From NCBI GenBank assembly GCA_050744245.1, contig JBOGGX010000238.1, positions 287 to 64,286 of the forward strand: a DNA stretch of 64,000 nucleotides, given 5' to 3'. The stretch comes from Acidimicrobiales bacterium (lineage in GTDB: Bacteria; Actinomycetota; Acidimicrobiia; Acidimicrobiales; JBOGGX01). Both the position numbers and the translations under genes were made by a program. The notes under the pieces are model-generated. The model made no database searches and had not been told where the DNA came from. It saw only the letters and a program-made list of their open reading frames with translations. Shown here piece after piece: positions 28,330-62,089 of the stretch. Position 1 is the stretch's first letter. Each line of letters opens with the position of its first letter.

Positions 28330-29100
28330 TCAGCTGGCGAGCTGGGCCAGCTCGAGATCGCGATCATCCACGCCGGACGTGGCCGACGCCATCGGCGACG
28401 CCTGCACCGCCGTGTCCTCGACCTCGACCGGACGCAGGACGTAGCCGACACCCCGGACCGTATGGATGATGCGGGGGCCGGCGGCCTCGAGCTTGCGCCG
28501 CAGCGCAGATACGTGCACCTCGACCAGGTTCACGTCGTAATGGTCGAAGCCCCACACCTTGGTGAGCAGCTGGTTCTTCGAGAGCACCAGCCCGCGGTGT
28601 TGGCACAACACGGCCAGCAACGAGAACTCGATCGCCGTCAGGTCGAGCATGGCGCCGCCCCGCTCCACCAGATGGGCCGGCTCGTCGATGAGAAGATCGC
28701 CGAGCTGCAGCCGACCCTCGCGGTGGCCGCAGCGGCGCAGGATGGCCCGCACCTTGAAGACGAGCTCGGCCAGCGAGAAGGGCTTGCCCAGCACCTCGTC
28801 GGCGCCGGCCTCGAGGCCGGCCAGCCGATCCTCGATGCGCTCCGATGAGGTGAGCACGACGATCGGCACGTCGCTCGCCGACCGCACCCGGTTGACCTTC
28901 GCCGACCGTTCCGCGAGCGACTCGCCCGCGACATCCATCACCAGAAGGTGGGGCCGGGTGTCGAGGAGCAACCGCTCCACCGGTGAACCCGCCGGCTCGC
29001 GGTTCACCGCGTAGCCACCGTTGCGCAAGGCCTCACCAACCGCATCACTCAGGAACTCGTCGTCCGCCACGACGAGCACTCGCCGCATTCCGCCGTTCAT
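28330..29100 (-). CDS. OmpR/PhoB-family response regulator (orphan; no adjacent histidine kinase)
   Basis: 256-aa ORF. The receiver has acidic pocket VVADDE, the phospho-acceptor in LLVMDV, VVLTS and GKPF. The winged-helix output is LTAIEFSLLAVLCQHRGLVLSKNQLLTKVWGFDHYDVNLVEVHVSALRRKLE....IIHTVRGVGYVLR. Confidence 0.9.
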   Translation of the reverse strand: MNGGMRRVLVVADDEFLSDAVGEALRNGGYAVNREPAGSPVERLLLDTRPHLLVMDVAGESLAERSAKVNRVRSASDVPIVVLTSSERIEDRLAGLEAGADEVLGKPFSLAELVFKVRAILRRCGHREGRLQLGDLLIDEPAHLVERGGAMLDLTAIEFSLLAVLCQHRGLVLSKNQLLTKVWGFDHYDVNLVEVHVSALRRKLEAAGPRIIHTVRGVGYVLRPVEVEDTAVQASPMASATSGVDDRDLELAQLAS

Positions 29101-29401
29101 GGTTCTTCACCCGCCCAGACTTGTTGGTTCAGCTTCCGCCGCTTGCACTTCCGCCCTGCAACCGCGTCCGCCGCACAACTCCCAGCGCCCGCAGACAGCA
29201 TCGTACGGCGACGCGCGCGAGGCGACATGGGCCAGATGACCCCTTTCTCGCGCGTCGCCAGGGTCGGCGAACGATCGATCGCACGGAGGGTGATTCCGGC
29301 CGCACGGCGCCGTCAGCCCACCCAACGGTGCGCAGCGTCCCCCGCACGTTGAGGGGCGACAGAAGCCCCGAAGGAGCACGGGCGACGGACGCGTCCGGCC
29401 C

Positions 29402-29456
29402 GTTCAGACAACCCTCAGTCCGACTTCAGCCCCGCTTCAGATGCCCGGCCGAGACT
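29402..29456 (+). promoter_or_regulatory. S1: 4 x 11-bp phased hexamer array + -10-like hexamer, facing the priming glycosyltransferase
   Basis: GTTCAG-acaac-CCTCAG-tccga-CTTCAG-ccccg-CTTCAG-atgcccggcc-GAGACT. Hexamers start at 29402, 29413, 29424 and 29435. GTG at 29506 has GGAGG 7 nt upstream. Confidence 0.7.
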
Positions 29457-29505
29457 GCCGCTCGACCCAGCCAGAAGGCGGACGGGTGGGACAGGAGGGT
29501 CAACG

Positions 29506-31152
29506 GTGGGGCTTTCCCTACACGAGCGAGACGGACTACGACAACTCGACCAGCGGCGGCGGCGGCGACCCGGCCCACCCATCGCGGCCGTGCACGAGTC
29601 CCCCGGGTCCGAGCGCGACGACAATCGTGCTGCCGTACACCGCGATGGCGTCTGGCCCGACGATGCCGTGTCTCCCGATCGTCGCCCATCCGCGCTTCGC
29701 CGACGGCTGCTGGCCGTCGACATCGTCGCCCTCGTCGTTGGTTGGACCATCGGTTGGATGTTCTTCGGCGACGGACTCCGCGGCCCGGTGTTCGCCGTGA
29801 GCACCGGTGTCGGCATGGTTGCCGTCGGGGTCGTTGCCAGCATGGCCGCGTTCTCCGTCGCGTGCCTGTACCGCCCGCCGCTCAACGGCATCCGCTCGGG
29901 GGCCTTGGCTCGACTTGTTCAATGCATGGCGATCACCGCCGTCGTGGTGGTGGCCTGGCAGGCGCTCGTCGAGGACGTGATCCTCGGGCTCGCCATCGGA
30001 TCGGCCGCCGTCGCCCTGCTCACCACGGTCCTCGCTCGCTACGGGTTCGACGTGTGGCTGATCGGTCGGCGCGAACAGGGCGACTTCCGCACACGGGTCG
30101 TCGTGGCCGGTGCCGCCAACGAGACCACGACCCTCGTCGACTTCCTCGAGCTCAACCCGGAAGCCGGGTTCGAGCCGACCGCCATTGTCGGGGAGCGCCC
30201 GGCGATGGCGACCGACGCCACCGAGGTGGCGCCCTACCTCGGAACCCTGTCGCAGGCCCACGAGGCCGTGCGCCAGACCGGCGCCGCCGGCGTGCTCGTC
30301 GGTGCCAACGGGCTCCCGAGCGACACGGTGAACGAGCTGGTCCACCACCTGTCCCTGGCCGGCATCCCGGTGCATCTGTCCAGCGGGCTCACCGGCGTGT
30401 CCCGGGCCCGCTTCCGGACCGTCGCGCTGGCCCACGAGCCGATCGTCATGGTGCGACCGCCTCGCCACTCGGCCGTGCAGGAGCTGGCCAAGAGAGCGAT
30501 CGACATCGCCCTGGCCGCGGCCATGCTGGTGCTGGCCTCACCGATCCTGGCCGTCGCCGCCCTACTCATCAAGATCCACGACCGCGGCCCCATGCTGTTC
30601 CGCCAGCTGCGCATCGGCAAGGACGGCAAGCCGTTCACCGTGCTGAAGCTGCGCACCATGGAGGTCGACGCCGAGACGCGTCTGGCCGATCTGCGGCACC
30701 ACAACGAGCGCAACGGGCCGCTGTTCAAGGTGGCCCACGATCCGCGGGTCACCCCCGTCGGCGGGTTCCTCAGGGCCTCCGCGCTCGACGAGGTGCCCCA
30801 GCTCTTCAACGTCCTCGCCGGAACCATGAGCATCGTCGGACCCCGGCCCGCGCTTCCGGCGGAGACGGCAGAGTTCGACGACGAGCTCGGGCGCCGCCAT
30901 CTCGTGCGGCCGGGCGTGACCGGGCTCTGGCAGGTGGAAGCCAACCACAAGGCTTCCTTCGAGGAGTACCGCCGGCTCGACCTCTTCTACGTGGACAACT
31001 GGTCGGTCGGCCTCGACCTCGCCGTGATCATCGACACGGTCCCGGCCATCACTCGCCGAGCCCTCCGGGCTCTGCGTCGACCGGCACCGTCCGCCCCGGT
31101 GCCGGTCAGTTCGCCCCGACCCGTGCCCCGACCGATCGAAGTCGGTCGATGA
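29506..31152 (+). CDS. polyprenyl-phosphate glycosyl-1-phosphate transferase (WbaP/CpsE-type priming sugar transferase)
   Basis: 548-aa ORF. N-terminal TM segments are followed by a C-terminal bacterial sugar transferase domain: FRQLRIGKDGKPFTVLKLRTM...NGPLFKVAHDPRVTPVGGFLR..SLDEVPQLFNVLAGTMSIVGPRP. Confidence 0.85.
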   Translation: MGLSLHERDGLRQLDQRRRRRPGPPIAAVHESPGSERDDNRAAVHRDGVWPDDAVSPDRRPSALRRRLLAVDIVALVVGWTIGWMFFGDGLRGPVFAVSTGVGMVAVGVVASMAAFSVACLYRPPLNGIRSGALARLVQCMAITAVVVVAWQALVEDVILGLAIGSAAVALLTTVLARYGFDVWLIGRREQGDFRTRVVVAGAANETTTLVDFLELNPEAGFEPTAIVGERPAMATDATEVAPYLGTLSQAHEAVRQTGAAGVLVGANGLPSDTVNELVHHLSLAGIPVHLSSGLTGVSRARFRTVALAHEPIVMVRPPRHSAVQELAKRAIDIALAAAMLVLASPILAVAALLIKIHDRGPMLFRQLRIGKDGKPFTVLKLRTMEVDAETRLADLRHHNERNGPLFKVAHDPRVTPVGGFLRASALDEVPQLFNVLAGTMSIVGPRPALPAETAEFDDELGRRHLVRPGVTGLWQVEANHKASFEEYRRLDLFYVDNWSVGLDLAVIIDTVPAITRRALRALRRPAPSAPVPVSSPRPVPRPIEVGR

Positions 31153-31275
31153 CCGATCAGATCGCCGTCGAGCGGGCGCGCCGCCGTAGCGCGGTACGGC
31201 GCGACCGCGCCCCCACGACGGGTCGGCACGGGCGGGCGGGTTCGCTTCGCGGTCACGAGATCTGAGCCATCGACG

Positions 31276-32436
31276 ATGCTCCAGACAGTTGCCACCGGCG
31301 TCGCCGCCGCCCTCCTCGTTCCCGGCCTCGTGACCTCCACCCACCTTGGGGTGCTTGCAGGGGCGTCGCTGCGGTTTCGAGAGCGCCTGCCCAAGGGCGA
31401 CGTGCCGCCGATTCGATTCCTCGTGGTCATCCCCGCACACAACGAGGAACAGATGCTCGGCGACACCCTCCGGGCCATCAACACGGCGCGCCGAGAGCGC
31501 GACCAGGTCCTGGTCGTCGACGACCGCAGCCGCGACCGAACGTCGGAGATCGCAAAGGCCCACGGCGCGCTCGTACTGCGACGCAACCCCGGCGAAGAGC
31601 CCGGTCGGGCGGCCGCCCGGCAGGCGGCAGTCGAGTACTCCGCGGCGCTCGAGTGGGATGCCATGGTCATGATCGATGCCGACTCGGTCGTCGAGCCGGG
31701 CTTTTTCGACCTGTGTGAACGCATGTGCGCGACCGGCAGCGAGGTGTTCCAAGCCCGCAGCGAGGCCCAGCACGGCGACTCGCTGCTCGACCAGGTGGCG
31801 CTGGCGTCGTTCGCGCTCCAGGGCGTCACGATTCCGCGAGGCAGGGCCGCCCTGCGACTGCCGGTTCGGCTGCGGGGCACGGGCATGATCATGAGGCGCA
31901 ACATCGTTCGCCGCATGTCGTTCCATGCGAAGGCCGGGGAGGACCTTCAGGCTTCGCTTGACCTCCTGCGCGACGGGATCAGACCGGCACACCTCGATGC
32001 CGCCCGCCTCCGCTCGGCGAACGCCGGGTCCTGGGGTACGGCCACGACGCAGAAGCTCCGGTACGAGTCTGGGCGCTCGGCGGCCGCTCGCGCCTACGTC
32101 CCCGGCCTGTTCCGTACCCGGACCTGGGCCGGGCTCGAAGCGGCATGGTTCCTGCTGTCGCCGCCATTCGCGACCGCGGCCGGGTTGCTCGGCATCGGTG
32201 CCGCGTTGGCCCTGGTGGGTGGCGCCGTGCCGCTCGCCGTCGCGGGTGGCCTGGGAGTCGCGCTCCTGGCCTTCAGCCTCTCGGTTGGCGCAGTGCAGGC
32301 CAGGCTCGACCGCCGCTTCCTGCTCGCGCTCCTCGCCGCTCCGGGCTACGTCACCTGGAAGCTCGCGGTCCAGCTTCGAGCGATCGTCGGGCTCCGCCGA
32401 GGCCTCCGCGAGTTCGGGCCGACGGCGCGCAGCTGA
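31276..32436 (+). CDS. family-2 glycosyltransferase with C-terminal TM region
   Basis: 386-aa ORF with FLVVIPAHNEEQMLGDTLRAI..., VLVVDDRSRDRT and MIDADSVVEPGF (DxD-like). Hydrophobic C-terminal helices resemble processive or membrane GT2s. Confidence 0.85.
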   Translation: MLQTVATGVAAALLVPGLVTSTHLGVLAGASLRFRERLPKGDVPPIRFLVVIPAHNEEQMLGDTLRAINTARRERDQVLVVDDRSRDRTSEIAKAHGALVLRRNPGEEPGRAAARQAAVEYSAALEWDAMVMIDADSVVEPGFFDLCERMCATGSEVFQARSEAQHGDSLLDQVALASFALQGVTIPRGRAALRLPVRLRGTGMIMRRNIVRRMSFHAKAGEDLQASLDLLRDGIRPAHLDAARLRSANAGSWGTATTQKLRYESGRSAAARAYVPGLFRTRTWAGLEAAWFLLSPPFATAAGLLGIGAALALVGGAVPLAVAGGLGVALLAFSLSVGAVQARLDRRFLLALLAAPGYVTWKLAVQLRAIVGLRRGLREFGPTARS

Positions 32437-32600: not shown

Positions 32601-33428
32601 CTAGCCGTCGTCGGCCACAGGCCGGGGACGAAGCTGGAGGGTGCGGCCCGGGAGCGAAGTCATACGCCGTGCGGGCGCCGCGGCCACCGGGCGGGGAGCT
32701 CGCGCCCGGACCGACCGGTGCTTGGCGATCGACTCCGCGATGGCCGCGACCGCGAGCGTCAGCAACCCGCCGAGGGCGAGTGCGGCCATCGCCGATCGAA
32801 TGGTGGCCGAGAGGACCGTGGTGGTCTCGGCCGGCACAACCACGTCATCCGTGGTGATGAAATACCTCGGGTCGGTCCCTTGCGCCTCCTGCCGATCGTG
32901 GAGCACGGCCCTGACCTCGGCCAGCAGCACGGCGGCCGATGCGAGAGCGGCTTCGGGCGACGGCTCCTCTGCCGTCACTTCGATGATCGGTCCACGAGCG
33001 AAGTTCACGTTGCCGGCAACGTCATAGTCGCCGACGCCTCGCTCTTGAAGCGCCGCTCGCATCGTCTCGCCGGTGACGATGCGGGCGACGATGTCGACCA
33101 CGACAGAAAGATCGTTGAACCGCTCGTAGGCGTTCTCCGTGACCACGGTGGTCGCGGTGGGCGACAGCGCCGGCGGACTGGGAGGTTCGAGAAGCACCAT
33201 CGAGCCCGAGGCCTTGTACGTCGGCGGGGACGAAGCGACGGCGCCCGCGACCAGGAGCACGGTGAGGATCATGGCCGGCACTGTGACCCGCCACCGCCGA
33301 CCAACCAGCCGAAGGATCGATACGACATCCATGGAACGCCTCGTAGGTTCTGCTTCCTCCGCCGAAACCTCGCGAACGGTAGTCGCGGTCGGGACCGTTT
33401 CCTGGGCGAGGGAGAGATGTGCGTTCAT
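32601..33428 (-). CDS. Wzz-like polysaccharide chain-length determinant protein (no kinase domain), paralog 1
   Basis: Internal ATG (33428) of ORF 32601-33491. The fold is TM, then a periplasmic/extracellular region, then TM. About half the residues match 48609-49493 (e.g. RFNDLSV.VDIVAR, GP.IEVTA..PS.EAA, GTDPRY, TTTVL). Confidence 0.75.
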   Translation of the reverse strand: MNAHLSLAQETVPTATTVREVSAEEAEPTRRSMDVVSILRLVGRRWRVTVPAMILTVLLVAGAVASSPPTYKASGSMVLLEPPSPPALSPTATTVVTENAYERFNDLSVVVDIVARIVTGETMRAALQERGVGDYDVAGNVNFARGPIIEVTAEEPSPEAALASAAVLLAEVRAVLHDRQEAQGTDPRYFITTDDVVVPAETTTVLSATIRSAMAALALGGLLTLAVAAIAESIAKHRSVRARAPRPVAAAPARRMTSLPGRTLQLRPRPVADDG

Positions 33429-33492
33429 GGCCTGCTTCCTTTGACGCGAGCGTACCTGCGGACCCGCGGCTGAGAACCAGGCGGACCCCAAG

Positions 33493-33547
33493 CTTCAGGC
33501 GCGCCTCAGGGTGCCTTCAGCGGCCCTTCAAGGCTGGCTCGGACACT
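33493..33547 (+). promoter_or_regulatory. S2: 4 x 11-bp phased hexamer array + -10-like hexamer, facing the sugar-dehydrogenase operon
   Basis: CTTCAG-gcgcg-CCTCAG-ggtgc-CTTCAG-cggcc-CTTCAA-ggctggctcg-GACACT. Hexamers start at 33493, 33504, 33515 and 33526. ATG at 33585. Confidence 0.7.
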
Positions 33548-33584: not shown

Positions 33585-34856
33585 ATGGCAAGAGTGGAAA
33601 CCGCGAACAAGGTCGTTGTCGTCGGACTCGGCTACGTCGGCCTACCTCTCGCGCTCGAGGCCGTCGCGGCCGGGCACGACGTGACCGGGTACGACACCTC
33701 GACCGAGCGGGTCCGCCGGCTTCATGCCGCGGAGAGCTACGTCGACGACGTCGATGATGTCGACCTCAAGGAGGCACGCGAGACGGGCCGGTTCGTCGTG
33801 ACCGATCGCCTCGACGAGTGTCGCGGCTTCGACATCGCCATCATCGCCGTGCCCACACCACTGCGCGATGGCGCGCCAGAGCTCGAGTATGTCATCGGCG
33901 CCACGAAGGCGATCGGGACCATCCTCGCGGCCGGCGGCTGCGTCGTGCTCGAGTCGACCACCTACCCGGGCACGACCGAGCAACTGGTCGTGCCGCTCCT
34001 GGAGGAGACGTCCGGTCTGAAGGCCGGTCGAGACTTCTCCGTCGGCTACAGCCCCGAGCGCATCGACCCGGGCAACCCGGTCTGGACGATCGGCACCACA
34101 CCCAAGATCGTGTCGGGTATCGACCAGACGTCCGTCGAACGAGTGCGTCGGTTCTACGCCACGATCGTCGATCGGGTCGTGCCCGTGAAGGGCACCAAGG
34201 AAGCCGAGCTCGCCAAGCTCCTCGAGAACACGTTCCGTCACGTCAACATTGCCCTGGTCAACGAGCTCGCGGTCTATGCCCACGAGCTCGGGATCGACAT
34301 CTGGGATGTCATCGACGGCGCCGACAGCAAGCCGTTCGGCTTCATGCGGTTCTCGCCCGGCCCTGGGGTTGGCGGGCATTGCCTTCCCATCGACCCGAGC
34401 TACCTGTCGTGGCAGGTGCGGCGCCGACTGGGGACATCGTTTCGATTCATCGAGCTGGCGAACGACATCAACCAGCGCATGCCTGACTATGTCGTCAACC
34501 GCATCGGTCTCTCGCTGAACCGTCAACACCTCTCGGTCAGCGGTGCTCGGATCCTGCTGCTCGGCCTCGCCTACAAGCGGAACTCGGGCGACGCACGCGA
34601 GACACCTGCGGCCCGCGTCGCTGAACTGCTCGACCGGCTCGGCGCCGAGCTGCGCATCGCCGACCCACTGGTCGAGGAGAGCCCGTCGGTGCCGGGCCTG
34701 AGGGTCGAGGCCGACGCCGAGGAGATCGCTTCTGCCGACCTCGTCGTCGTGCTGACCGACCACGACGCGTTCGATTGGGACTCGGTGCGCACCAACGCTC
34801 GTGCGATCTTCGACACCCGTCACCGGCTGGAGGGACCGAACGTTGAACACCTCTGA
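33585..34856 (+). CDS. UDP-N-acetyl-hexosamine 6-dehydrogenase (UDP-glucose/GDP-mannose dehydrogenase family; WbpA/WecC-like)
   Basis: 423-aa ORF with VVVVGLGYVGLPLA, AIIAVPTP, GYSPERIDPGN, KLLENTFRHVNIALVNEL and GPGVGGHCLPIDP. Confidence 0.9.
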   Translation: MARVETANKVVVVGLGYVGLPLALEAVAAGHDVTGYDTSTERVRRLHAAESYVDDVDDVDLKEARETGRFVVTDRLDECRGFDIAIIAVPTPLRDGAPELEYVIGATKAIGTILAAGGCVVLESTTYPGTTEQLVVPLLEETSGLKAGRDFSVGYSPERIDPGNPVWTIGTTPKIVSGIDQTSVERVRRFYATIVDRVVPVKGTKEAELAKLLENTFRHVNIALVNELAVYAHELGIDIWDVIDGADSKPFGFMRFSPGPGVGGHCLPIDPSYLSWQVRRRLGTSFRFIELANDINQRMPDYVVNRIGLSLNRQHLSVSGARILLLGLAYKRNSGDARETPAARVAELLDRLGAELRIADPLVEESPSVPGLRVEADAEEIASADLVVVLTDHDAFDWDSVRTNARAIFDTRHRLEGPNVEHL

Positions 34857-35991
34857 GAAGTCCACGGCCCTTGGAGCGGGACGGCTCACGCCGCATGACG
34901 TCGAGGGCCTGCTCGACTTCGCCGACGGTGTGCTCCCGACCCTGCGCCATCGAGATGGCCTGTTCTGCTTCGATCGAGGATTCGACTCACCCGAACTTCG
35001 CGGCGTGTCGGTTCGCTACTCGATCCTCGTCCTGCTCGGACTCCTGAGGCGACGGACGACCGGCCGCGACTTCAGCATCGACGTCGAGGATCTCCATCGC
35101 AGCATTGCCAGCCGAGTCGACACGTTGGACGTCGGCGACCTCAGCCTGCTGCTCTGGGCCGAGGTCCGGATGGGCGCGGCGTCGGCTCCCGTGACGCTGG
35201 CCCGGCTCGCTCGGCGCTCGGCCGACCAGGAACGCCAAGGCCGACTCGAAGGCATGGAGGCCGCCTGGTTCGTCCTCGGCACGGCGGAGGCCACGGTGGC
35301 CGGGCTTCCCGCTCGGGAGCAGTTCGATGCCGCCTACGCCCACTTCCGGGCTCGTCGCTCACCTTCCTCCCCGCTCTTCCGTCACAACGCCACGGGGCGG
35401 GGGCGGGCCCGGCTTCCCAACTTCGCCACCCAGATCTACAGCCTGCTCGCCTTGGCCGAGACGGTCCGTCACGGCCTGGCCCACGACGCAGAGGGCGCCG
35501 GCCGCGCTCTGGCCGCCAAGCTCATCGAGCTCCGGCTGCCCGACGGTGGTTGGCCGTGGCTCTTCCACGCCGACCGGGGTTCCGTGGTCGAGCGCTACGA
35601 GGTGTACTCCGTGCACCAGGACGCCATGGCCCCCATGGCGCTCTTCGCCCTGGCCGAGGCGACCGGCGAACAGTCCTATGCCCGGGCCGCGGTCGAGGGG
35701 TTCCAATGGTGCTTCGGGAACAACGAGCTCGGCTTCGACTTCTACGACCGGGCCAACCACTTTGCGCATCGCTCGATCAAGCGGCGAGGTTGGGCGCACT
35801 CGGCCAACCTGTGGACCAACACCGCCCTCGGCGGCGTCCTGGGATCCGCCGCGAGAACCGACGCCGGCGGCCTCGAGATCAACGCCACCTGTCGGCCCTA
35901 TCACCTGGGGTGGATCCTCGAGGCATGGTCGGGGCGCGAGCATCTCAACTCCCTCGTGGCCGGCGAGCAGACGACCGAGGTTGTCGGATGA
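34843..35991 (+). CDS. hypothetical protein, possibly (alpha/alpha)-toroid fold; start uncertain
   Basis: ORF 34801-35991 with a TTG at 34843 overlapping the upstream stop. Motifs such as LRLPDGGWPWLF and VHQDAMAPMALFALAEATGE recall terpenoid-cyclase/epimerase-like toroid repeats. No firm family was assigned. Confidence 0.55.
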   Translation: MNTSEKSTALGAGRLTPHDVEGLLDFADGVLPTLRHRDGLFCFDRGFDSPELRGVSVRYSILVLLGLLRRRTTGRDFSIDVEDLHRSIASRVDTLDVGDLSLLLWAEVRMGAASAPVTLARLARRSADQERQGRLEGMEAAWFVLGTAEATVAGLPAREQFDAAYAHFRARRSPSSPLFRHNATGRGRARLPNFATQIYSLLALAETVRHGLAHDAEGAGRALAAKLIELRLPDGGWPWLFHADRGSVVERYEVYSVHQDAMAPMALFALAEATGEQSYARAAVEGFQWCFGNNELGFDFYDRANHFAHRSIKRRGWAHSANLWTNTALGGVLGSAARTDAGGLEINATCRPYHLGWILEAWSGREHLNSLVAGEQTTEVVG

Positions 35992-42070: not shown

Positions 42071-42082
42071 GCGTGTGCGTCC

Positions 42083-53066: not shown

Positions 53067-53222
53067 TTTGGGCGGGCCCCTCTGATTGTCGACGAGCGAA
53101 ACGGTTCCAAGGCCCGCCAACCCAGGAGAGTGGGCGCTCCCCTCAGTCGACCCGGTGGAATGGCCTCGTCGCTGAATCTTTACTTACGGGCCGCAACATG
53201 CTTGCAACATGGGGCCGGTGCG

Positions 53223-53969: not shown

Positions 53970-55051
53970 CAGCGAACAACAGCACCCCGCAGCACGATGC
54001 GGCGGGGGTCCGACAGCACCCGAGGATCCAGCCTCGGATCAGCGTCGTAGACCGCCAGGTCGGCGGGTCCACCCTCGGCGAGGCTCGCCAGGCCGAGCCA
54101 CTCGCGGGCCCGCCACGACCCCGCCGCCACCGCTTCGGTCGCCGGAAGGCCGGCGTGATGCAGCAGCAGGATCTCGTCGACCAGGCGGCCATGCGGGACG
54201 GCACCACCGGCATCAGAGCCCGTGTAGATGGCGACGCCGGCCTCGAACGCGGCCCGGACGACGTCCCGAAACCGGTCCTTCGCACTGCGCATCGACGCCG
54301 CGAAGCGAGGGAACCTGGCCTCGGCCTGGGCCGCGATCGACTCGAAGTTCCATTCGACGTTCACCATCGTCGGCACCAGCGCGGTGCCCTGCGCAGCCAT
54401 ACGGTCCAGCAAGCCGGCGTCAAGACCGCAGCCGTGTTCGATCGAGTCGACCTTGGCGTCGACCAAGGCCTCGACGGCCGCCTCACCGAAGGTATGGACG
54501 GCGACGCGGACGCCGGCACCATGGGCCGTTTCGACCGCCTGGTTGACCGCGGCCGCATCAAAGGTGGGGCCGATGTCCCCGATGTCCCTGTCGATCCAGT
54601 CGCCGACCAGCTTGACCCACCCCGTCCCGGCCGCCGCCTGCTCGAGGACTCGACCGGCGAGCTCATCGGGCGTGCACTCGATCGCCAGCCCTGGGAGGTA
54701 GCGCCGAGGCGGCGCGAGATGCCGACCACAACGGATGAGGCGTGGCACATCCGGATCGTCGTCGAGCGTGCGATAGTCGATGGGAGAGCCGGCGTCACGG
54801 ATGGCCAGCACGCCGGCGTGACGGTCCTCGAGGGCCAAGTCCTTCGCCGCGGCGACGCTCTCGACCGGACGGGAATCCCGACCGATGCCGATGTGGCAGT
54901 GGGCGTCGACGAGCCCGGGCAGGACGAAGCCCCGGTCCGCGATCGTCTCCGCTCCCGTCACCGGGTCGTACGTCAATCGGTCACCGACGATGTAGATGTC
55001 GCGTTGCGCCTCCTCGGGCAACACGACCCCGGCCACGTGGAGCGGGCGCAC
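53969..55051 (-). CDS. amidohydrolase-family metal-dependent hydrolase
   Basis: 360-aa ORF with GFVLPGLVDAHCHIG (HxH metal site), VAVHTFGE and IYTGSDAG. Confidence 0.85.
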   Translation of the reverse strand: MRPLHVAGVVLPEEAQRDIYIVGDRLTYDPVTGAETIADRGFVLPGLVDAHCHIGIGRDSRPVESVAAAKDLALEDRHAGVLAIRDAGSPIDYRTLDDDPDVPRLIRCGRHLAPPRRYLPGLAIECTPDELAGRVLEQAAAGTGWVKLVGDWIDRDIGDIGPTFDAAAVNQAVETAHGAGVRVAVHTFGEAAVEALVDAKVDSIEHGCGLDAGLLDRMAAQGTALVPTMVNVEWNFESIAAQAEARFPRFAASMRSAKDRFRDVVRAAFEAGVAIYTGSDAGGAVPHGRLVDEILLLHHAGLPATEAVAAGSWRAREWLGLASLAEGGPADLAVYDADPRLDPRVLSDPRRIVLRGAVVR

Positions 55052-55063
55052 GAGTGACGCCGG

Positions 55064-55909
55064 CTACCCGACGACCGGGCTGGTTCCGGTGGCGAGGTCG
55101 AGGATCGTCTCGAACGCCGAGGGCTCTGTTGTGCAGGCGCCGAGCTCGGTGTCCTTGATCCGGCCGTGGTAGTCGCTGGAGCCGGTGGCAACCAGCCCGA
55201 AGGCTGCGGCGATCTCGCGAAGCCGACGCCTGTCGTCCACGTCGTGACTCGGGTGATCGACCTCGAGCCCGGCCAGCCCGGCGTCGACCAGGCGTCGGGT
55301 CATCTCGGTGAGACCATCGCCGAGGGAGTGACCCTCAGCGAGCGGATGGGCCAGCACCGCGACGCCGCCCGCTCGCCTGATCAGCCCCACCGCCACCACG
55401 GGATCGAGGACGTACTTCTCCGCGTACGCGCGGCCGCCGTGCCCCACCCAGGCCGGCGTGAACGCCGACCGCACATCCGGCACGACGCCGAGGTCGACCA
55501 GGGCCGACGCGATATGGGGCCGACCAATGGTTCCATCGGCGGCGGCGCCCGCGACGTGGTCCCACGAGATGGGCACGCCGAGCTCCTGCAGCTTCGTCAC
55601 CATGACGTGGGCCCGCCGCACCCGGTCAGTCGCCAGCCGCTCCAGCTCGCACGTGAGCTCGGGCGCAGCCGGGTCGAAGAGGTACGCCAGCATGTGAAGG
55701 CTTCGCCCGTCCGCTCCGCATGAGATCTCGGCCCCCGGCACCAGCGTCAGACCCGACGGCAGCGCCGCGGCGGCATCACGCCAACCATCCACGGTGTCGT
55801 GGTCGGTCAGGGCGATGACGTCAACTGCGAGCGCCGCCTTGGCGACGAGGTCGGCCGGGGTGTCCGTGCCATCCGAGCGCGTGCTGTGGGTGTGGAGGTC
55901 GATCCTCAT
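55064..55909 (-). CDS. PHP-domain phosphoesterase (TrpH/YciV-like)
   Basis: 281-aa ORF with MRIDLHTHSTRSDGT, ALTDHDT, AHP and GSSDYHG. Confidence 0.85.
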   Translation of the reverse strand: MRIDLHTHSTRSDGTDTPADLVAKAALAVDVIALTDHDTVDGWRDAAAALPSGLTLVPGAEISCGADGRSLHMLAYLFDPAAPELTCELERLATDRVRRAHVMVTKLQELGVPISWDHVAGAAADGTIGRPHIASALVDLGVVPDVRSAFTPAWVGHGGRAYAEKYVLDPVVAVGLIRRAGGVAVLAHPLAEGHSLGDGLTEMTRRLVDAGLAGLEVDHPSHDVDDRRRLREIAAAFGLVATGSSDYHGRIKDTELGACTTEPSAFETILDLATGTSPVVG

Positions 55910-55941
55910 GGGTCGGCGGCGACGCTAGTGGAGCACCTCCG

Positions 55942-56547
55942 TCAGGTAAGGGCGTCACCCACGGCGACCAGGTGGAACTCGGTGAGCCCGTTGTGCGCAC
56001 CCTCGACCCGGTAGCACCGCTCGCAATCGGGACAGGTCAGTTCGGGCGAGAGGCGCACCCCGCAGCGGCAGACCCAGTCGATGAACCGAGCCGGGTTCCC
56101 GGCGACCAGCGCGTGGGCCGGCACGTCGCGGATGACCACCGACCCTGCCGCGACGAACGCATTCGTGCCGATCGTGCGGCCGCACACGATGGTTGCGTTG
56201 GCGCCGATCGTCGCCCCGGCGCGGACGAGCGTCCTGGAGAACTCGGCTCCGGCCTTCTTGACGTGGGCCCGCGGCGTGAGGTCGTTCGTGAACACGACGT
56301 TGGGTCCCAGAAACACGTCGTCTTCGACGGTGACGCCGTCCCAGACGAGCACGGCGTTCTTCACCGTCACCCGGTCACCGACGACGGCCCCACCCTCGAT
56401 GAACGCGTGGTCGCAGATGTTGCAGTCGGCACCGACGACGGCCATCGGCAACACGTGGGCGAACGCCCAGATGCGCGTGCGGGGTCCGACCTCGTCGCTC
56501 TCGCAGAGGCCGTTGGGGTGGACGAACACAGACCGGTCGGGTGTCAT
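55942..56547 (-). CDS. left-handed beta-helix N-acetyltransferase, WbpD/WlbB-like (UDP-2-acetamido-3-amino-2,3-dideoxy-glucuronate N-acetyltransferase type)
   Basis: 201-aa ORF with FVHPNG......VGPRTRIWAFAHV......VGADCNICDHAFIE..AVVGDRVTVKNAVLVWDGVTVEDDVFLGPNVVFTND..PR....T.V..GATIGANATIVCG..IG..AFVAAGSVV..DVP..ALVAGNPAR, plus a C-terminal CxC...CxxC tail. Confidence 0.8.
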   Translation of the reverse strand: MTPDRSVFVHPNGLCESDEVGPRTRIWAFAHVLPMAVVGADCNICDHAFIEGGAVVGDRVTVKNAVLVWDGVTVEDDVFLGPNVVFTNDLTPRAHVKKAGAEFSRTLVRAGATIGANATIVCGRTIGTNAFVAAGSVVIRDVPAHALVAGNPARFIDWVCRCGVRLSPELTCPDCERCYRVEGAHNGLTEFHLVAVGDALT

Positions 56548-57692
56548 GCCGCCTCCGTTCGCACCGCCGCGACCAACTCGGCGACAGCTCGGTCCTGCTG
56601 GGCCTCGGTGATCCCGGGATAGATCGGCAGCGACACCATCTCCGTGGCGGCGGCCTCGGCGACCGGAAAGTCACCGTGTCGGTGACCCAGGCCCGAGAAC
56701 GCAGGCTGAAGGTGGAGCGGCACCGGGTAGTGGATGCCCGCCCCGATCCCCGCGGCGTTGAGTCGGGCCAGCACCTCGTCCCGAGCCGCCACCCGGACGA
56801 CATACAGGTGCCACACGTGCTCGTTCCCGGCCATGACCGCGGGAAGGCGGATGTTCGGCTCGTCCTTGAGCAGCTCGTGGTAGCGCCGGGCCGCAGCCCG
56901 ACGCGCGTCGTTCCACCAGTTGAGTCGGCGCAGCTTGGCCCGCAACACGACCGCCTGCAGGGTGTCGAGACGGGAGTTCATCCCGGCGAGCCCGTGCTCG
57001 TACCTTCTCGTTCCGCCGTGGTTGCGCAGGGCACGGACGACGTCGGCCGACCAACTGTCCTGCGTGAGGACGGCCCCGGCATCACCGTAGGCGCCCAGGT
57101 TCTTGCCCGGATAGAAGCTGGTCGCGGCCATGGCCCCGACGCTGCCGCTCGGCCGGCCGTAGCGAGTGGCCCCCTGCGACTGGGCCGCATCCTCGATGAT
57201 GTCGACATCGGATGGAATGGCGCGGACCAGATCTTCGATGGGCGCCATCTGGCCGTAGAGGTGCACGGCGATGACGGCTCGAGTCCGACGACTCAACCGA
57301 TCGGCGACCTGTCGCGGATCGATCAGCAGATACCTGGGATCGCAGTCGACCAGCACAGGCCGGGCGCCAACGCTCATGACCGCCTCGGCCGTGGCGATGA
57401 AGGTGTTGGCCGGAAGCAGGACCTCGTCGCCGTTTCCGACGCCTCGGGCTCGGAGTGCGAGCTCGAGGGCGTCGGTGCCGTTGGCGACGCCTACGCAGTG
57501 CGCGGCCCGGCTGAACCGAGCGAACTCACCTTCGAAGGACTCGACGTCCGGACCGAGCACAAAGGAGCCCTCGGCGACGACCCGGGCCCAGCCCGCCGCC
57601 ACCTCGGCCGCAACCTGTTCGTGCTGGATCGACAGGTCGACGAGCGGGATGGTCTCGATTCTCGGTTCGGCACGGATCAAGGGCGGGGTCAC
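56544..57692 (-). CDS. DegT/DnrJ/EryC1/StrS-family PLP aminotransferase (WbpE-like)
   Basis: 382-aa ORF with IPLVDLSIQHEQV, FVLGPDVESFEGEFA, GVANGTDALELAL, LLPANTFIATAEAV and 4-nt overlaps with both neighbours. Confidence 0.9.
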   Translation of the reverse strand: MTPPLIRAEPRIETIPLVDLSIQHEQVAAEVAAGWARVVAEGSFVLGPDVESFEGEFARFSRAAHCVGVANGTDALELALRARGVGNGDEVLLPANTFIATAEAVMSVGARPVLVDCDPRYLLIDPRQVADRLSRRTRAVIAVHLYGQMAPIEDLVRAIPSDVDIIEDAAQSQGATRYGRPSGSVGAMAATSFYPGKNLGAYGDAGAVLTQDSWSADVVRALRNHGGTRRYEHGLAGMNSRLDTLQAVVLRAKLRRLNWWNDARRAAARRYHELLKDEPNIRLPAVMAGNEHVWHLYVVRVAARDEVLARLNAAGIGAGIHYPVPLHLQPAFSGLGHRHGDFPVAEAAATEMVSLPIYPGITEAQQDRAVAELVAAVRTEAA

Positions 57693-58393
57693 GCGGTCAA
57701 CACCTCTCGGGCTAGTTCAACGGTTCGAACGAATCGGGCCGGCACGCCGGCCCACACCTCGGCGTCCCCCACGCTTCGGGTTACGACTGCTCCCATGCCG
57801 ACCAATGACCATGACCCGACACGAAGGTTTTCTCGGACGAGGCAGCCGGCGCCGAGGTAGGCGCCGGTTTCGACGGCGACGCCGCCCGCGAGTCTGACCC
57901 CGGCGCCGACCGTGACGAAGTCGCCGACAAGGTCGTCATGGGTCAGGACGGCCAACGGCATGATGCCGACGTGGGCTCCGACGGTCACATCGACGGTGAC
58001 CACGACGCCCGCGAGGACGACCGTCCCCTCGCCGAGTTGGCACGACGTCGGGACCACGGCCGTGGGATGGACGATCGTGGCGTAGCGATCGGGAAGGAGT
58101 CCAAGGCGGCGGACGATCCGGTGCTTCGACGTGTAGTCGCCGGGATGCCCGGTGCACACGACGACCTTGGTGGCAGGCATCTCGGCGAGGCGATCGATCC
58201 CGCCCAGCACGGGGACCCCGGAGACGACGGTGCCCCAGCGGGACGGCTCGTCGTCGAGGAATCCCAGCACGTCCCAGCGGTTCCGGCCGCTGATCGCGGC
58301 CCGCTCCTCGTTGGTGGCGCGCACGACCTCGGCCGTTTCGCGACCGAATCCGCCGGAGCCGATGATGACGAGTGGTTCAGGCCGCCGGGTCAC
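57689..58393 (-). CDS. NeuD/PglD/VioB-family sugar N-acetyltransferase
   Basis: 234-aa ORF. An N-terminal Rossmann-like LVIIGSGGFGRETAEVV is followed by a C-terminal hexapeptide-repeat domain. Confidence 0.85.
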   Translation of the reverse strand: MTRRPEPLVIIGSGGFGRETAEVVRATNEERAAISGRNRWDVLGFLDDEPSRWGTVVSGVPVLGGIDRLAEMPATKVVVCTGHPGDYTSKHRIVRRLGLLPDRYATIVHPTAVVPTSCQLGEGTVVLAGVVVTVDVTVGAHVGIMPLAVLTHDDLVGDFVTVGAGVRLAGGVAVETGAYLGAGCLVRENLRVGSWSLVGMGAVVTRSVGDAEVWAGVPARFVRTVELAREVLTA

Positions 58394-58437
58394 GGCGCAC
58401 CTCGTCGTGCGGTGAGATGGCGACGACGACCAAGGGA

Positions 58438-59625
58438 TCAGCTCCGCCGCTCGGCCGCGGTGGCAATGACATCGACCACCAGGTCCTGGTCGGCCTCGGT
58501 GAGATCATGGAAGAGCGGAAGGATGAGCGACCGCTCGGTCAGGCGCTCCGTCACCGGCAGTGGTTGGTGCGGGTGGCCGGCGTACGCCGGCTCGAGGTGC
58601 GAGGCCATGATGCCTCTGCGGGCGCTGACTCCGTGATCCGCCAGGATCCCCAGCAGGTGATTGCGCTCGACCGGGAACTCGTCGGGCAGGCACACCCAGA
58701 ACGACTGGAAGTTCGTCGTGCCGTACCCGGGATCCGCAGCCATGATCGCCTGCTCGAGCTGGGGAATCTCGACGAGCTTCCGTTGGTACCGCTGAGCCAG
58801 CAGGCGTCGCCGCGACACGATGAGATCGAGTCGCGAGAGCTGCACGAGACCGATCGCGGCCTGGACGTCGGTCATGCGGTAGTTGAAGCCGGTCTCGACG
58901 TACGCCTCCAGGACCGGGCCCTGGGCCAGGTGTCGGTCGGCCGCGCTCACGTTCATGCCGTGCTCCCGCAGCCGACGGCAACGCGCGGCCCACTCCTCGT
59001 TCGAGGTCACCAGCATCCCGCCCTCACCCGTGGTGATCACCTTGCGGGGGTGGAAGGAGAAGGCGGCCAACTCGGCCCGGGCCCCGACGGGTTGGCCGGC
59101 GTAGGTGGACCCGATGGCGCAGGCCGCGTCCTGGATGACGGTGACACCGAGCGGGTCGCAGAGGACACGGATCGGGTCGAGCTCGGCCGGGACGCCTCCC
59201 TGGTCGACCACGATGACGGCGCGGGTTGCGGGGGTGAGTGCGCTCCTGATCGATTCCACCGTGAGGTTCTGGGTGATGGGGTCGACGTCCGCGAATACGG
59301 GATGGGCGCCCACGTAGCGCACGGCGTTGGCCGTGGCGATGAACGACAGCGAGGGAACGAGGACGTCGTGGCCGGGACCGATGCCCGCAACCACGAGGGC
59401 GAGATGGAGCGCCGTGGTGCACGACGAGACGGCGACCGCGTGAGCGGCACCGACCCGGCGGGCGAACGCCTCTTCGAACTGCGCGACCCGGGGCCCTTGG
59501 GCGACCCAGCCCGAGAGGACGGCCTCGCTGGCGGCGACCGCTTCCTCGGGACCGAGCGTCGGCCGCATCACCGGGATCGAACGCTTGGACCGGGCCGTGG
59601 GGACGAGCTCGCTGAGCACGCTCAT
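58438..59625 (-). CDS. DegT/DnrJ/EryC1/StrS-family PLP aminotransferase (second copy)
   Basis: 395-aa ORF with IPVMRPTLGPEE, GWVAQGPRVAQFEEAFA, SSCTTALHLAL, LVPSLSFIATANAV and SFHPRKVITTGEGGM. Confidence 0.9.
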   Translation of the reverse strand: MSVLSELVPTARSKRSIPVMRPTLGPEEAVAASEAVLSGWVAQGPRVAQFEEAFARRVGAAHAVAVSSCTTALHLALVVAGIGPGHDVLVPSLSFIATANAVRYVGAHPVFADVDPITQNLTVESIRSALTPATRAVIVVDQGGVPAELDPIRVLCDPLGVTVIQDAACAIGSTYAGQPVGARAELAAFSFHPRKVITTGEGGMLVTSNEEWAARCRRLREHGMNVSAADRHLAQGPVLEAYVETGFNYRMTDVQAAIGLVQLSRLDLIVSRRRLLAQRYQRKLVEIPQLEQAIMAADPGYGTTNFQSFWVCLPDEFPVERNHLLGILADHGVSARRGIMASHLEPAYAGHPHQPLPVTERLTERSLILPLFHDLTEADQDLVVDVIATAAERRS

Positions 59626-60647
59626 CGTCGTGCGCCCTCCGTCTCCTGGACCTCAGCCGACATCCACGAGTCCGAGTCCCGCTCGGCCTGCCACCACTCG
59701 ACCAGCCGCGACAAGCCCTCGTCCAGATCGACCTCGGCCGAGAAGCCGAGGCGGTCGCGAGCGGCGGTCGTGTCGGCCAGCCGGCGGGTGACCGCATTCA
59801 CCTTGCGCTCAGGACCGTGCTCGGGCGAGAGATCTGACCCCATGACCAGGAGCAGCGCCGTGGCCAGACCAGCCAGGCTGGTTTCCGTTCCGGCGGCGAT
59901 GTTGAAGACCTCGTCGCTGACGCCGGAGACCGCGGCGAGCAGGTTGGCTCGGGCGACGTCGTCGACGTAAACGAAGTCCATGGTCTGAAGGCCATCGCCG
60001 AGGATGAGCGGAGGTTGACCGGCGGCGATGCGCTCCATCCATCGCACGAGCACCTCGGTGTACACGCCGAAGATGTCCATTCGGGGGCCGTACACGTTGA
60101 AGTAGCGGAGGGCGACGTAGTCCAGGTCGTGCATGTCGGCGAAGCTCCGGAGCAGACCCTCGTTGAACGACTTGGCCGCTCCGTACAGCGTGCGGTTGCC
60201 GTACGGATGCTGGTGCTCCCTCGTCGGAAACTCCTCGGCGAGCCCGTAGACCGAGGCCGACGACGCGGCGACCACCTTGGGGACGCCCGCCGCAGCCGCG
60301 GCCTCGATGACGTTGAACGTGCCGTCGACGAGGACTTCGAGCGCCAGCCGGGGATCCTCGGCACACTGCGTGATCCGGATCGCGGCCTGATGGAACAGGA
60401 CGTCGACGCCACGCATCGCTCGAGCGACGAGGTCGCGGTCTCGGATGTCGCCCTCGATCACCTCGACGCGACCGGTGGCGATGGCGTCGGCCAGGTTGGC
60501 GCGGCGGCCGCGAACGAAGTTGTCGAGGACGACGACCTCGACATCGGTCGTCCCGACCAGCTGATCGGTGATGGCCGACCCGATCATGCCGGCGCCGCCG
60601 GTGATCAGGATGCGGGCTCCATCGAGCCTGGGGTAGCGAGTGGTCAC
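59622..60647 (-). CDS. NAD-dependent epimerase (extended SDR, GalE/WbpP-like)
   Basis: GTG at 60647 overlaps the upstream stop (GTGA). Motifs are ILITGGAGMIGS, ASSASVYG and YGAAKSF (YxxxK). The upstream 350 codons of ORF 59622-61718 are out-of-frame read-through. Confidence 0.9.
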   Translation of the reverse strand: MTTRYPRLDGARILITGGAGMIGSAITDQLVGTTDVEVVVLDNFVRGRRANLADAIATGRVEVIEGDIRDRDLVARAMRGVDVLFHQAAIRITQCAEDPRLALEVLVDGTFNVIEAAAAAGVPKVVAASSASVYGLAEEFPTREHQHPYGNRTLYGAAKSFNEGLLRSFADMHDLDYVALRYFNVYGPRMDIFGVYTEVLVRWMERIAAGQPPLILGDGLQTMDFVYVDDVARANLLAAVSGVSDEVFNIAAGTETSLAGLATALLLVMGSDLSPEHGPERKVNAVTRRLADTTAARDRLGFSAEVDLDEGLSRLVEWWQAERDSDSWMSAEVQETEGARR

Positions 60648-61699
60648 AGCGTCTCCTGGGCGCGGTCGCGAACGGGGAGCGGCACCATCGCACCCCCGCG
60701 GTCGATGCTCCGATCGATCGCCTCGAGCACCTCCAGCACCCACAGACCCGACTCGCCACCGGTCGCCGCGGGTCGGCGCTCGCGAATCGCGCCGACGAGC
60801 TCTGCGATGACGTTCTGCAGCGCCTCGGTCTCGCCCAGGGCCGGAGCGATCATGTCGCCGACGCGGTACGAGATCAGCGTGTCGCGCCGGGCCTCGAGGT
60901 TCATCGGCCCCTCGAGGTCGACGCCGCGATCGTGCACCGACAGCCGCTGGGCCGGATGCATGTCGTCCCACACCAGCATCCGCCGTGACCCTCCGACGTG
61001 CATCGTGCGGACCTTGGTCGGGCTGAGCCAGTTCACGTGGGCGTGGGCGATGCCGCCGTTGGCGAGAGGAAGCGTGAGATACCCGACGCACGAGTGGCCG
61101 GCTCCGATCGGATCGGCGCCGTGGGCCGCGACACTGACCGGCCGGGCGTCGTCGGCCAGAACGAAGTCGAGTATCGAGAGGTCGTGCGGCGCCAGGTCCC
61201 AGAAGACATCGATGTCCGACTGGACCAGGCCCAGGTTGATACGCACCGAGTCGACGTATTGGATCTCGCCCAGCTCGCCGCCACGGACCAGCTGGTGGAT
61301 CCTCTGGACGGTCGGCGTGTAGCAGTAGGTGTGGTCGCACATGAGGACCACACCGGCGTCGCGTGCAGCATCGACGAGTTTGCGGCCTTCGTCGACCGAC
61401 GTGGCCAACGGCTTCTCGACCAGCACGTGCTTCCCTGCGTCGATGCAGGCGAGCGCCACCGATGTGTGCGTGTGGGCCGGGGTGGCGATGGCGACGGCGG
61501 CGACGTTGGGGTCGTCGAGCACGATGTCGAGGTCGTCGGTGATGGGAACCGTGCTCTGCCGACCGACCGCCTTGGCCGCCTGGTTGATGTCGAGGTCGCA
61601 GACCCAGCGGAGCGTGGCATCGTCGCGCCGAAGAATGTTGCGGACGAGGTTCGGCCCCCAATAGCCCGCTCCGATGACGGCCATACCGATCGGCTTCAT
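60644..61699 (-). CDS. Gfo/Idh/MocA-family oxidoreductase (WbpB-like)
   Basis: ATG at 61699 has GAGGGAGGG 6 nt upstream. The sequence begins MKPIGMAVIGAGYWGPNLVRN... and the gene encodes 351 aa. Confidence 0.9.
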   Translation of the reverse strand: MKPIGMAVIGAGYWGPNLVRNILRRDDATLRWVCDLDINQAAKAVGRQSTVPITDDLDIVLDDPNVAAVAIATPAHTHTSVALACIDAGKHVLVEKPLATSVDEGRKLVDAARDAGVVLMCDHTYCYTPTVQRIHQLVRGGELGEIQYVDSVRINLGLVQSDIDVFWDLAPHDLSILDFVLADDARPVSVAAHGADPIGAGHSCVGYLTLPLANGGIAHAHVNWLSPTKVRTMHVGGSRRMLVWDDMHPAQRLSVHDRGVDLEGPMNLEARRDTLISYRVGDMIAPALGETEALQNVIAELVGAIRERRPAATGGESGLWVLEVLEAIDRSIDRGGAMVPLPVRDRAQETL

Positions 61700-61835
61700 G
61701 CCGGCCCTCCCTCGGCAACCGCTGACTGGAGAGCGCCGGGCGTTCGCCGGGCGGCGCAGGCTGGGCGCGCGTTGCCGCGCTTCCATCGGTCGCTGCTGGG
61801 GCCTCGGTTGCCGCTCATGCTCTCCCTGTTCCTGT

Positions 61836-61873
61836 CCCGGTCGGGCTGCGCCACCGGACGCAACCCGACCGGG
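61836..61873 (-). other. stable hairpin in the long leader of the S5 operon
   Basis: A perfect 10-bp inverted repeat CCCGGTCGGG ... CCCGACCGGG with an 18-nt loop lies between the predicted -10 (61913-61918) and the start codon (61699). Confidence 0.35.
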
Positions 61874-61912
61874 GGCCTGTGGCCGGGCGTCACGCGCCCA
61901 CACCTGGATCGC

Positions 61913-61967
61913 AGTATCGGGAGGGAGGCTGAAGGTGGCCTGAAGCGCCACTGAGCCTTGGCTGAAT
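61913..61967 (-). promoter_or_regulatory. S5: 4 x 11-bp phased hexamer array + -10-like hexamer, facing the sugar-modification operon
   Basis: Read on the minus strand: ATTCAG-ccaag-GCTCAG-tggcg-CTTCAG-gccac-CTTCAG-cctccctccc-GATACT. Plus-strand CTGAAG/CTGAGC/CTGAAT start at 61929, 61940, 61951 and 61962. The start codon is 213 nt downstream. Confidence 0.7.
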
Positions 61968-62089
61968 CGGGCCGGGGGCGTGCGGCCGGGCCGCTGGTCA
62001 TGGGCGAGGAGTGGTGGTTGGGCGCGTTTCACCACATCTGCCGTGGTGAACCGCACGCAACGCCGCCCGGCGAGCCCGGGGTGGTCAGC

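Follow-up and report, generated by a model that had tools for sequence, protein, structure and literature searches.

Within a stretch of 64,000 nucleotides from an Acidimicrobiales bacterium (contig JBOGGX010000238.1; hereafter the window, by which we mean this whole stretch, with a G+C content of about 70%), the region 29.5-61.8 kb is, by Pfam and NCBIfam annotation, a Wzx/Wzy-type polysaccharide locus, and five copies of a phased direct repeat, S1 to S5, are distributed along it. The principal result of our analysis is that these five sites are, with good probability, putative operators of a response regulator from the OmpR/PhoB family that is dedicated to the cluster and encoded in it at 28330-29100. 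Such a dedicated regulator explains the sites better than PhoP, to which a first-pass annotation of the same DNA had tentatively assigned them.

Phased repeats and the response regulator encoded beside them

Searching the whole 64 kb for the 37-nt pattern TCAG-N6-CTCAG-N5-CTTCAG-N5-CTTCAG, with at most two mismatches, gave five matches, at 29404-29440 and 33495-33531 on the plus strand and at 43379-43415, 48403-48439 and 61929-61965 on the minus strand, with no sixth copy of the four-unit pattern elsewhere in the 64 kb and no match at all in 100 shuffles of the sequence. Each site consists of four direct repeats, which read (G/C)TTCAG, CTCAG, CTTCAG and CTTCAG and whose TCAG cores recur every 11 bp exactly; the spacers between the cores are mutually unrelated. 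All five sites lie inside the locus and every one of them is oriented toward the next gene on its own strand. Moreover, in all five cases a -10-like hexamer, with A at its second and T at its sixth position (NANNNT), begins exactly 10 nt past the last unit. A consensus scan found no sigma-70 -35/-10 promoter at S1-S5, and terminator calls in the window were at chance level only. If the hexamer is the -10 element, the repeats extend from about -64 to -23, with the last unit in the place of the -35 element. As far as can be read from sequence, this combination of phased direct repeats and a fixed distance to the -10 is the layout of an OmpR/PhoB-type class II activator site that replaces the -35. 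At S3, an in-frame GTG is present at 43357, 5 nt past the -10 hexamer, so that the glycosyltransferase gene behind it may lack a leader and exceed by 26 codons the length counted from the start at 43279.

The regulator itself is composed of a receiver domain (REC) and a winged-helix output domain of the Trans_reg_C family. Residues D14, D56 (the phospho-acceptor), T84 and K106 are all present and, across 121 sequences (120 homologues and the regulator), the corresponding positions are conserved as D in 119, D in 119, S or T in 116 and K in 100 of them, respectively, the first acidic residue being variable. As the phospho-acceptor aspartate is kept, a kinase encoded elsewhere probably controls the regulator. 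There is no kinase gene beside it, histidine-kinase families are absent from all scanned open reading frames (ORFs) of the window, and no HisKA or HATPase domain is on record within 10 kb on either side in six homologous loci.

Among proteins of solved structure, the closest relatives of the full-length regulator are PrrA (1.4e-45) and PhoP (1.2e-37) of Mycobacterium tuberculosis, followed by MtrA and RegX3, and Escherichia coli PhoB matches through the receiver domain only (about 1e-13). When the DNA-binding domain is compared alone, PrrA (1.1e-23) and M. tuberculosis PhoP (1.7e-20) again lead, then come GlnR, MtrA and others, and RegX3 (3e-14) and E. coli PhoB (2e-12) rank well below. The regulator falls short of every NCBIfam equivalog cutoff, including those for PhoB (TIGR02154, 143.7 against 296.2) and MtrA (162.6 against 300). 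Judged by these comparisons, it is not an orthologue of PhoB, of the Streptomyces-type PhoP or of RegX3. Its recognition helix, NLVEVHVSALRRKLE, does not vary in the close homologues, which fits the invariant TCAG of the sites. In relatives of 41-50% identity the helix reads NV(V/L)EVYVKQLRQKLE, and TCAG units are still used.

The pairing of regulator and site can be followed into other genomes. For this comparison, eight loci were picked purely by similarity of the regulator protein: L001 and L002, both of them Acidimicrobiales metagenome-assembled genomes (MAGs), at 66-67% identity, and L029-L034 at 54-81%. In every one of them the regulator gene is neighbour to a priming transferase (Bac_transf) or to other genes for exopolysaccharide, divergent from them or directly upstream, and every one also has, between or beside those genes and no more than about 0.6 kb from that of the regulator, a TCAG site of four units whose -10 keeps the offset. 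Counting the window, regulator and repeat thus occur together in nine loci out of nine, a pairing conserved among Acidimicrobiales-like genomes. The S1 sites of L001, L002 and L086 are orthologous to that of the window, with the same spacing and the same GTG start downstream, and in the window, L001 and L002 the transferase gene behind the site has kept its GTG-GGG-CTT beginning. More distant OmpR-family matches, of at most 41% identity (L003-L028), have no such site, save for a three-unit match in L014.

A scan that used only the pattern, with its 21 specified bases, on 241 million metagenome records returned 119 stretches, 80 of these as loci. Approximately half of the metagenome matches were perfect tandem arrays of an 11-mer and were removed by spacer similarity and array length. 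The sites that remain have dissimilar spacers and sit on high-GC contigs, and many neighbour a homologue of the regulator (identity 41-95%); the scan added about 15 contigs in which site and homologue stand side by side. The arrays, of the form (CTTCAGGGTAG/GGTGG)n, come from soil contigs of lower GC (L039, L043, L044, L047, L054, L067, L074, L084, L109, L111 and others), often end in the flank GGGTGCCTACCGGTTGGCTACCA, and are not related to the promoter sites.

When all non-tandem sites were pooled, whether from the window, a related genome or a metagenome, and the register was fixed without using the -10, NANNNT stood at an offset of exactly 10 in 51 of 54 unique sites, the other offsets scoring between 0 and 7 against a background frequency of 0.022. 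In lower-GC contigs the hexamers are TAGACT, TAATCT, TAGTCT and TATACT, in other words TANNNT. That the repeats are part of a promoter is independently confirmed by this fixed offset.

The genes that follow the sites belong mainly to polysaccharide synthesis. We considered 38 deduplicated ORFs directly following sites outside the window, its own five being annotated separately. Twelve of the 38 are Bac_transf priming transferases and three are UDP-sugar dehydrogenases; the others include glycosyltransferases of families GT4 and GT2, an acyltransferase-3, a formyltransferase and a giant protein with DMFA2_C and DUF4082 domains. Hallmark families of the Pho regulon (PstS, PhoU, phosphatase) are not represented among the 38. 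In L102, the gene following a site encodes a homologue (53% identity) of the 1620-residue protein of the window, which, given also its own site S4, looks like a conserved member of the regulon.

In the distant lineages L040, L042/L092, L087 and L101, the sites precede genes for small membrane proteins (DUF5676, DUF308), PspA, HMA, SDR, a methyltransferase and a LuxR-type regulator. Four sites each fall within about 8 kb in L040 (8950, 6110, 3128 and 1132) and in L101 (6025, 11027, 3737 and 2647), on contigs of 58-62% GC with regulator relatives of 41-50% identity and a -10 of the form TANNNT. With DUF5676, HMA, PspA and DUF308 downstream, these two look like an envelope-stress regulon that employs the same TCAG operator. 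The closest relative on a long contig, L029 (1-9750, regulator identity 81%), carries two four-unit sites 281 nt apart before a sulfotransferase-rich locus, and here the same regulator and operator may control a sulfated polysaccharide. Finally, L034 has two paralogous OmpR-family regulators, 6072-6836 and 10001-10771, 3 kb apart in one exopolysaccharide locus, with a second four-unit site, 8836-8800 on the minus strand, before a GT2/WecG pair between them.

On this basis we infer that the regulator binds the sites physically, that it activates rather than represses, and that it does so as four protomers. Two head-to-tail dimers would occupy the four 11-bp units, and the promoter-proximal protomer would substitute for the -35 element and recruit RNA polymerase to the NANNNT hexamer 10 nt downstream. 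Five transcription units would be co-activated in this way, and their products would make, flip and modify a uronic-acid-containing, Wzx/Wzy-dependent polysaccharide, all under a regulator whose activity would be set by a kinase encoded elsewhere.

Several points weigh against this mechanism. The wzz-wzy unit, with no site on the plus strand, and ORF 32601-33491 lack a site, as does the regulator's own promoter. In particular, when the upstream regions of the regulator genes were aligned in search of a PHO box or an autoregulatory site, they aligned poorly and gave only a GGGCGGAAG-like element and no phased repeats; the element, in the form GGGCGGAAG(T)G, recurs 30-100 nt upstream of the regulator starts in the window (29125-29165), L001, L002, L033 and L050. 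The -10 hexamers mostly lack the first T (GAGACT, for example), which leaves the sigma factor uncertain. A site that overlaps the -35 position could also serve repression. And, strong as the co-localisation is, the argument is still one by association.

Gene content of the locus and its predicted product

Genes were called by third-position G+C over the 64-kb window and annotated with Pfam and NCBIfam. The features are collected in the table below.

Table. Positions of the regulator gene, the repeat sites with their -10-like hexamers, and the genes or units of the polysaccharide locus
Feature	Positions	Strand	Description
OmpR/PhoB-family response regulator	28330-29100	-	256 aa; divergent from S1; Trans_reg_C 5e-24, Response_reg 2.6e-10
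S1	repeats 29402-29440; hexamer GAGACT 29451-29456	+	putative promoter of the priming glycosyltransferase unit (Unit 1)
S2	repeats 33493-33531, final unit CTTCAA; hexamer GACACT 33542-33547	+	before Unit 2
S3	repeats 43417-43379; hexamer CAGGAT 43368-43363	-	putative internal promoter, 21 nt past the stop of the giant gene
S4	repeats 48441-48403; hexamer GATACT 48392-48387	-	before Unit 4
S5	repeats 61967-61929; hexamer GATACT 61918-61913	-	before Unit 5
Two-unit half site CTTCAG-N5-CCTCAG	48496-48512	-	57 nt upstream of S4, intergenic with the divergent wzz-like gene
Unit 1	29506-32436	+	polyprenyl-phosphate glycosyl-1-phosphate transferase 29506-31152, then GT2 31276-32436
Unit 2	33585-37930	+	dehydrogenase, unknown 396-aa protein, GT26, 2-epimerase
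Unit 3	38266-43357	-	GT4 42083-43279 (or 43357), GT4 40838-42070, Wzx flippase 39342-40853, beta-helix protein 38266-39459
Unit 4	43436-48298	-	1620-aa protein: DMFA2_C, Big_5 x3, DUF4082 x4
Unit 5	50905-61819	-	sugar-nucleotide modification operon, read from 61819 downward
Wzz-like and Wzy	48609-49493 and 49516-50916	+	locus genes, divergent from S4

The priming transferase of Unit 1 was recognised by Bac_transf (3.9e-61) and by TIGR03025 (356 bits against a cutoff of 295). In Unit 2, 33585-34856 is a nucleotide-sugar 6-dehydrogenase (TIGR03026, 391.8 bits against 189.8), whose top equivalogs, UDP-ManNAc dehydrogenase and TviB, are each under their cutoff; 35988-36746 is a GT26 of the WecG/TagA/CpsF family (TIGR00696, 155 against 69); and 36638-37930 is a 2-epimerase of the WecB type (TIGR00236, 314.8 against 210). 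Unit 5 opens with a GFO/IDH/MocA oxidoreductase resembling WbpB (60644-61819) and continues with an SDR epimerase/dehydratase (59622-60680), a DegT aminotransferase, a PglD-like acetyltransferase, a second DegT aminotransferase, a hexapeptide acetyltransferase, a PHP protein, an amidohydrolase, a methyltransferase, a Thr/Pro-rich beta-helix protein and a GT2. It thus holds two hexapeptide acetyltransferases, one of them of the PglD/NeuD type (TIGR03570, 183.8 against 160.8).

At the level of families, the set of WecB/WecC/WecG- and WbpB/E/D-type enzymes is complete, comprising the 2-epimerase, the 6-dehydrogenase, the GT26, the 3-oxidase (GFO_IDH_MocA), the aminotransferase (DegT, twice) and the N-acetyltransferase (Hexapep). 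Plausibly, N-acetylmannosaminuronic acid (ManNAcA) would be provided and transferred by WecB, the dehydrogenase resembling WecC, and WecG, their substrate specificities being predicted ones, and a 2,3-diacetamido uronic acid would, equally plausibly, come from the WbpB/E/D-like enzymes. The product of the locus may therefore plausibly be an acidic polymer with ManNAcA or a diacetamido-uronic acid, made by the Wzx/Wzy route. Enzymes of glycerol- or ribitol-phosphate polymers (Glyphos_transf, Tag/Tar) gave no Pfam match among the scanned ORFs of 28330-62000, and no ligase of the LytR_cpsA_psr (LCP) family, which would attach the polymer covalently to peptidoglycan, was matched among the locus ORFs, a gene that could be encoded outside the locus.

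These results bear on much of what had been said of the locus before. Its uronic-acid chemistry, with the dehydrogenase at 33585 and the WbpB/E/D-like enzymes, was borne out at the family level (TIGR03026, GFO, two DegT, Hexapep), the TagA/WecG-type GT26 was placed in its family as described, and the stated lack of Tag/Tar genes agrees with our Pfam scan. The gene at 42083-43279, which had been called TuaH-like, is indeed a GT4, but its match to TuaH is weak and partial (NF047676, 101 bits where 550 is the cutoff). TuaB (116 against 580) and TuaD (110 against 700) are likewise far from their cutoffs, and no Tua model is among the matches of the priming transferase, the other glycosyltransferases, Wzy or Wzz. 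Since the Tua equivalog cutoffs are not reached, the locus is not a tua operon by membership, and the functions it has in common with tua are those of any acidic Wzx/Wzy heteropolysaccharide. In other words, of the earlier proposal of a teichuronic-acid-like polymer, an acidic product from a locus without Tag/Tar genes is plausible, whereas membership in the Tua group is unsupported.

A few neighbouring features deserve mention. The gene of the 1620-residue protein (43436-48298) contains four internal repeats of about 810 nt each, made of DUF4082 and Big_5 modules. In the product of the minus-strand ORF 51897-53120, a membrane anchor is combined with a long linker rich in Thr and Pro and with a weak beta-helix domain, and GTCGTC-type DNA repeats at 52662-52853 stem from the linker. 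Directly on the other flank of the regulator gene, the minus strand carries the tRNA-Glu gene at 28128-28201, an integrase gene that is frameshifted and divided between two frames (26213-27697 and 26575-26964) and, at 24458-25612, a transposase of the DDE type, so that the glycan locus abuts a decayed integrated element. Further away, at 8982-13500, pieces of PfkB, a Cgl0159-like protein, an aldehyde dehydrogenase and an aldo-keto reductase are spread across several overlapping frames, which points to frameshifts in the genes, or to errors in the sequence, of a region for inositol or sugar catabolism.

Phosphate, repression and RNA as alternatives

The first-pass annotation had proposed that S1-S5 are PHO boxes of the organism's phosphorylated PhoP, and the locus a phosphate-sparing analogue of teichuronic acid synthesis switched on under phosphate limitation. 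The background to this proposal is correct, since in Bacillus subtilis phosphorylated PhoP does activate tuaA-H (PMC6232261, PMC4415409) and represses tagAB (PMC6232261), and PHO boxes are 11-nt direct repeats (PMC4415409). What is more, PhoP of Streptomyces coelicolor binds upstream of a glycosyltransferase gene, SCO4878 (PMC2275107), and the present locus, as discussed above, encodes uronic-acid chemistry and no Tag/Tar genes. The proposal was also right in that S1-S5 are phased direct repeats of the OmpR/PhoB-family type, at five sites, with an 11-bp period and in activator position. The resemblance of the unit itself to that of actinobacterial PhoP did not hold, as, compared with the S. 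coelicolor consensus G(G/T)TCAYYYR(G/C)G (PMC2275107), only the TTCA core is common and the repeat has mostly C as its first base and G as its sixth. In particular, CTTCAG is the sequence of units 3 and 4 at nearly all pooled sites, and C1 and G6 are the very deviations by which Sola-Landa et al. explain non-binding by S. coelicolor PhoP, a rule that comes from Streptomyces and not from this class (PMC2275107).

Other evidence also speaks against PhoP. A different OmpR-family regulator is encoded inside the locus and is paired with the site in nine of the nine loci; it is far below the PhoB cutoff, and its DNA-binding domain is much closer to those of PrrA, M. tuberculosis PhoP, GlnR and MtrA than to those of RegX3 and E. 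coli PhoB. No pst or pho genes were found among the scanned ORFs of the window, just as pst, phoU and phosphatase families are absent among the genes downstream of sites elsewhere. PHO boxes of the S. coelicolor type number two in the window, where 1.77 are expected; the regions upstream of the regulator genes showed nothing like a PHO-box repeat; and the Tua cutoffs are not reached. Taken together, we regard PhoP-driven, phosphate-sparing control of the locus through these sites as very unlikely. The more general idea of a switch for an acidic-glycan locus is thus retained in its mechanism class, phased repeats of the OmpR/PhoB type, and loses its link to PhoP and phosphate.

Phosphate is a possible, if unsupported, upstream signal. 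In particular, one may speculate that the regulator is the output of a nutrient-sensing kinase encoded elsewhere, with phosphate as one candidate signal, and forms a dedicated second branch by which Acidimicrobiales switch between surface glycans, the start of an acidic polymer without phosphate being one example. We consider this unlikely. If true, it would amount to a phosphate-sparing switch through a regulator other than PhoP, in a class whose wall polymers and their regulation are uncharacterised.

The same regulator and sites could also be read in the opposite sense, the protomers covering the -35 region and blocking RNA polymerase until a signal arrives. The sites do overlap the -35 position, and members of the OmpR family, M. 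tuberculosis PhoP included, are able to repress (PMC11825685). Nevertheless, the promoters have no recognisable -35 hexamer, and the fixed 10-nt gap to the -10, together with the orientation along the direction of transcription, matches the activation geometry of PhoB, PmrA and GlnR (PMC10570014, PMC10235972). Given the missing -35 and this activator-type geometry, repression is less likely than activation, and on the whole we think it unlikely. Of a different nature is the idea that the repeats act in RNA, as a protein-bound or folded element of a 5' leader. The sites are on the sense strand and at least 53 nt upstream of the start codons, a distance that depends on the choice of start. However, a conserved -10 sits downstream of the repeats, which would therefore not be transcribed from that promoter; RNAalifold gave no pairs in 12 diverse sites; Rfam had no match at the sites, the tRNA-Glu being its only match in the whole window; and a phasing of exactly 11 nt agrees with one face of B-DNA. 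We have rejected the RNA element on account of the position of the -10, the RNAalifold result and the lack of an Rfam match, and attach hardly any probability to it.

Significance and relation to known systems

Activation by the dedicated cluster regulator, which we favour, would provide a concrete and testable regulon for Acidimicrobiales, an abundant lineage of soil and water known mostly from MAGs. Its parts are one regulator, an operator defined precisely over 37 nt, a promoter geometry that is fixed, and five units as targets, and the operator pattern alone locates surface-glycan loci and their promoters in metagenomes. Moreover, a tempting annotation as PhoP and teichuronic acid is corrected. 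A search of the literature for such a regulator or motif in Acidimicrobiia or Actinobacteria, or for a PrrA motif, returned nothing relevant, and the pairing is not described there. The regulatory principle, a cluster-situated activator of the OmpR family, is already standard.

Several known systems are instructive in this respect. The SARPs (Streptomyces antibiotic regulatory proteins) such as ActII-ORF4 and DnrI are encoded in their own cluster and bind direct repeats spaced by 11 bp that overlap the -35 and end a few bp upstream of the -10. They differ in having a BTAD domain and no receiver, whereas here we are dealing with a full response regulator with REC and winged helix. PHO boxes, bound by PhoB in E. 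coli and by PhoP in S. coelicolor and B. subtilis, likewise consist of direct units of 11 bp, of which an operator has two to four or more, at the -35, and the E. coli pho box is situated 10 bp upstream of the -10, which is the geometry of S1-S5. At B. subtilis tua, PHO boxes moreover activate an operon for an anionic, phosphate-free wall polymer. The differences are the unit, CTTCAG here as opposed to GTTCAYY or CTGTCAT, the lack of an adjacent PhoR-type kinase, and the lack of pho genes in our sample of the regulon.

PrrA and PhoP of M. tuberculosis are the closest solved relatives of the regulator, with a recognition helix of the same type, N-V-V-E/D-x-[YF]-[VI]-x-x-LRRK. Both are encoded beside their cognate kinases, PrrB and PhoR, and govern global stress or virulence regulons; unlike them, the regulator described here is an orphan and tied to its cluster. 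A parallel in architecture is offered by GlnR, even though it is only the third-closest family by sequence. GlnR differs in its box sequence, TCAG being used here, in that the phospho-acceptor aspartate is kept in our regulator, and in controlling nitrogen metabolism, where the regulon here appears to be a polysaccharide locus. That said, in the actinobacterial GlnR transcription activation complex four GlnR protomers are bound to four head-to-tail sites, and GlnR promoters and the present ones have in common an orphan regulator of the OmpR/PhoB family, four direct units that lie upstream of the core promoter and abut it, and a high-GC actinomycetotal host (PMC10235972).

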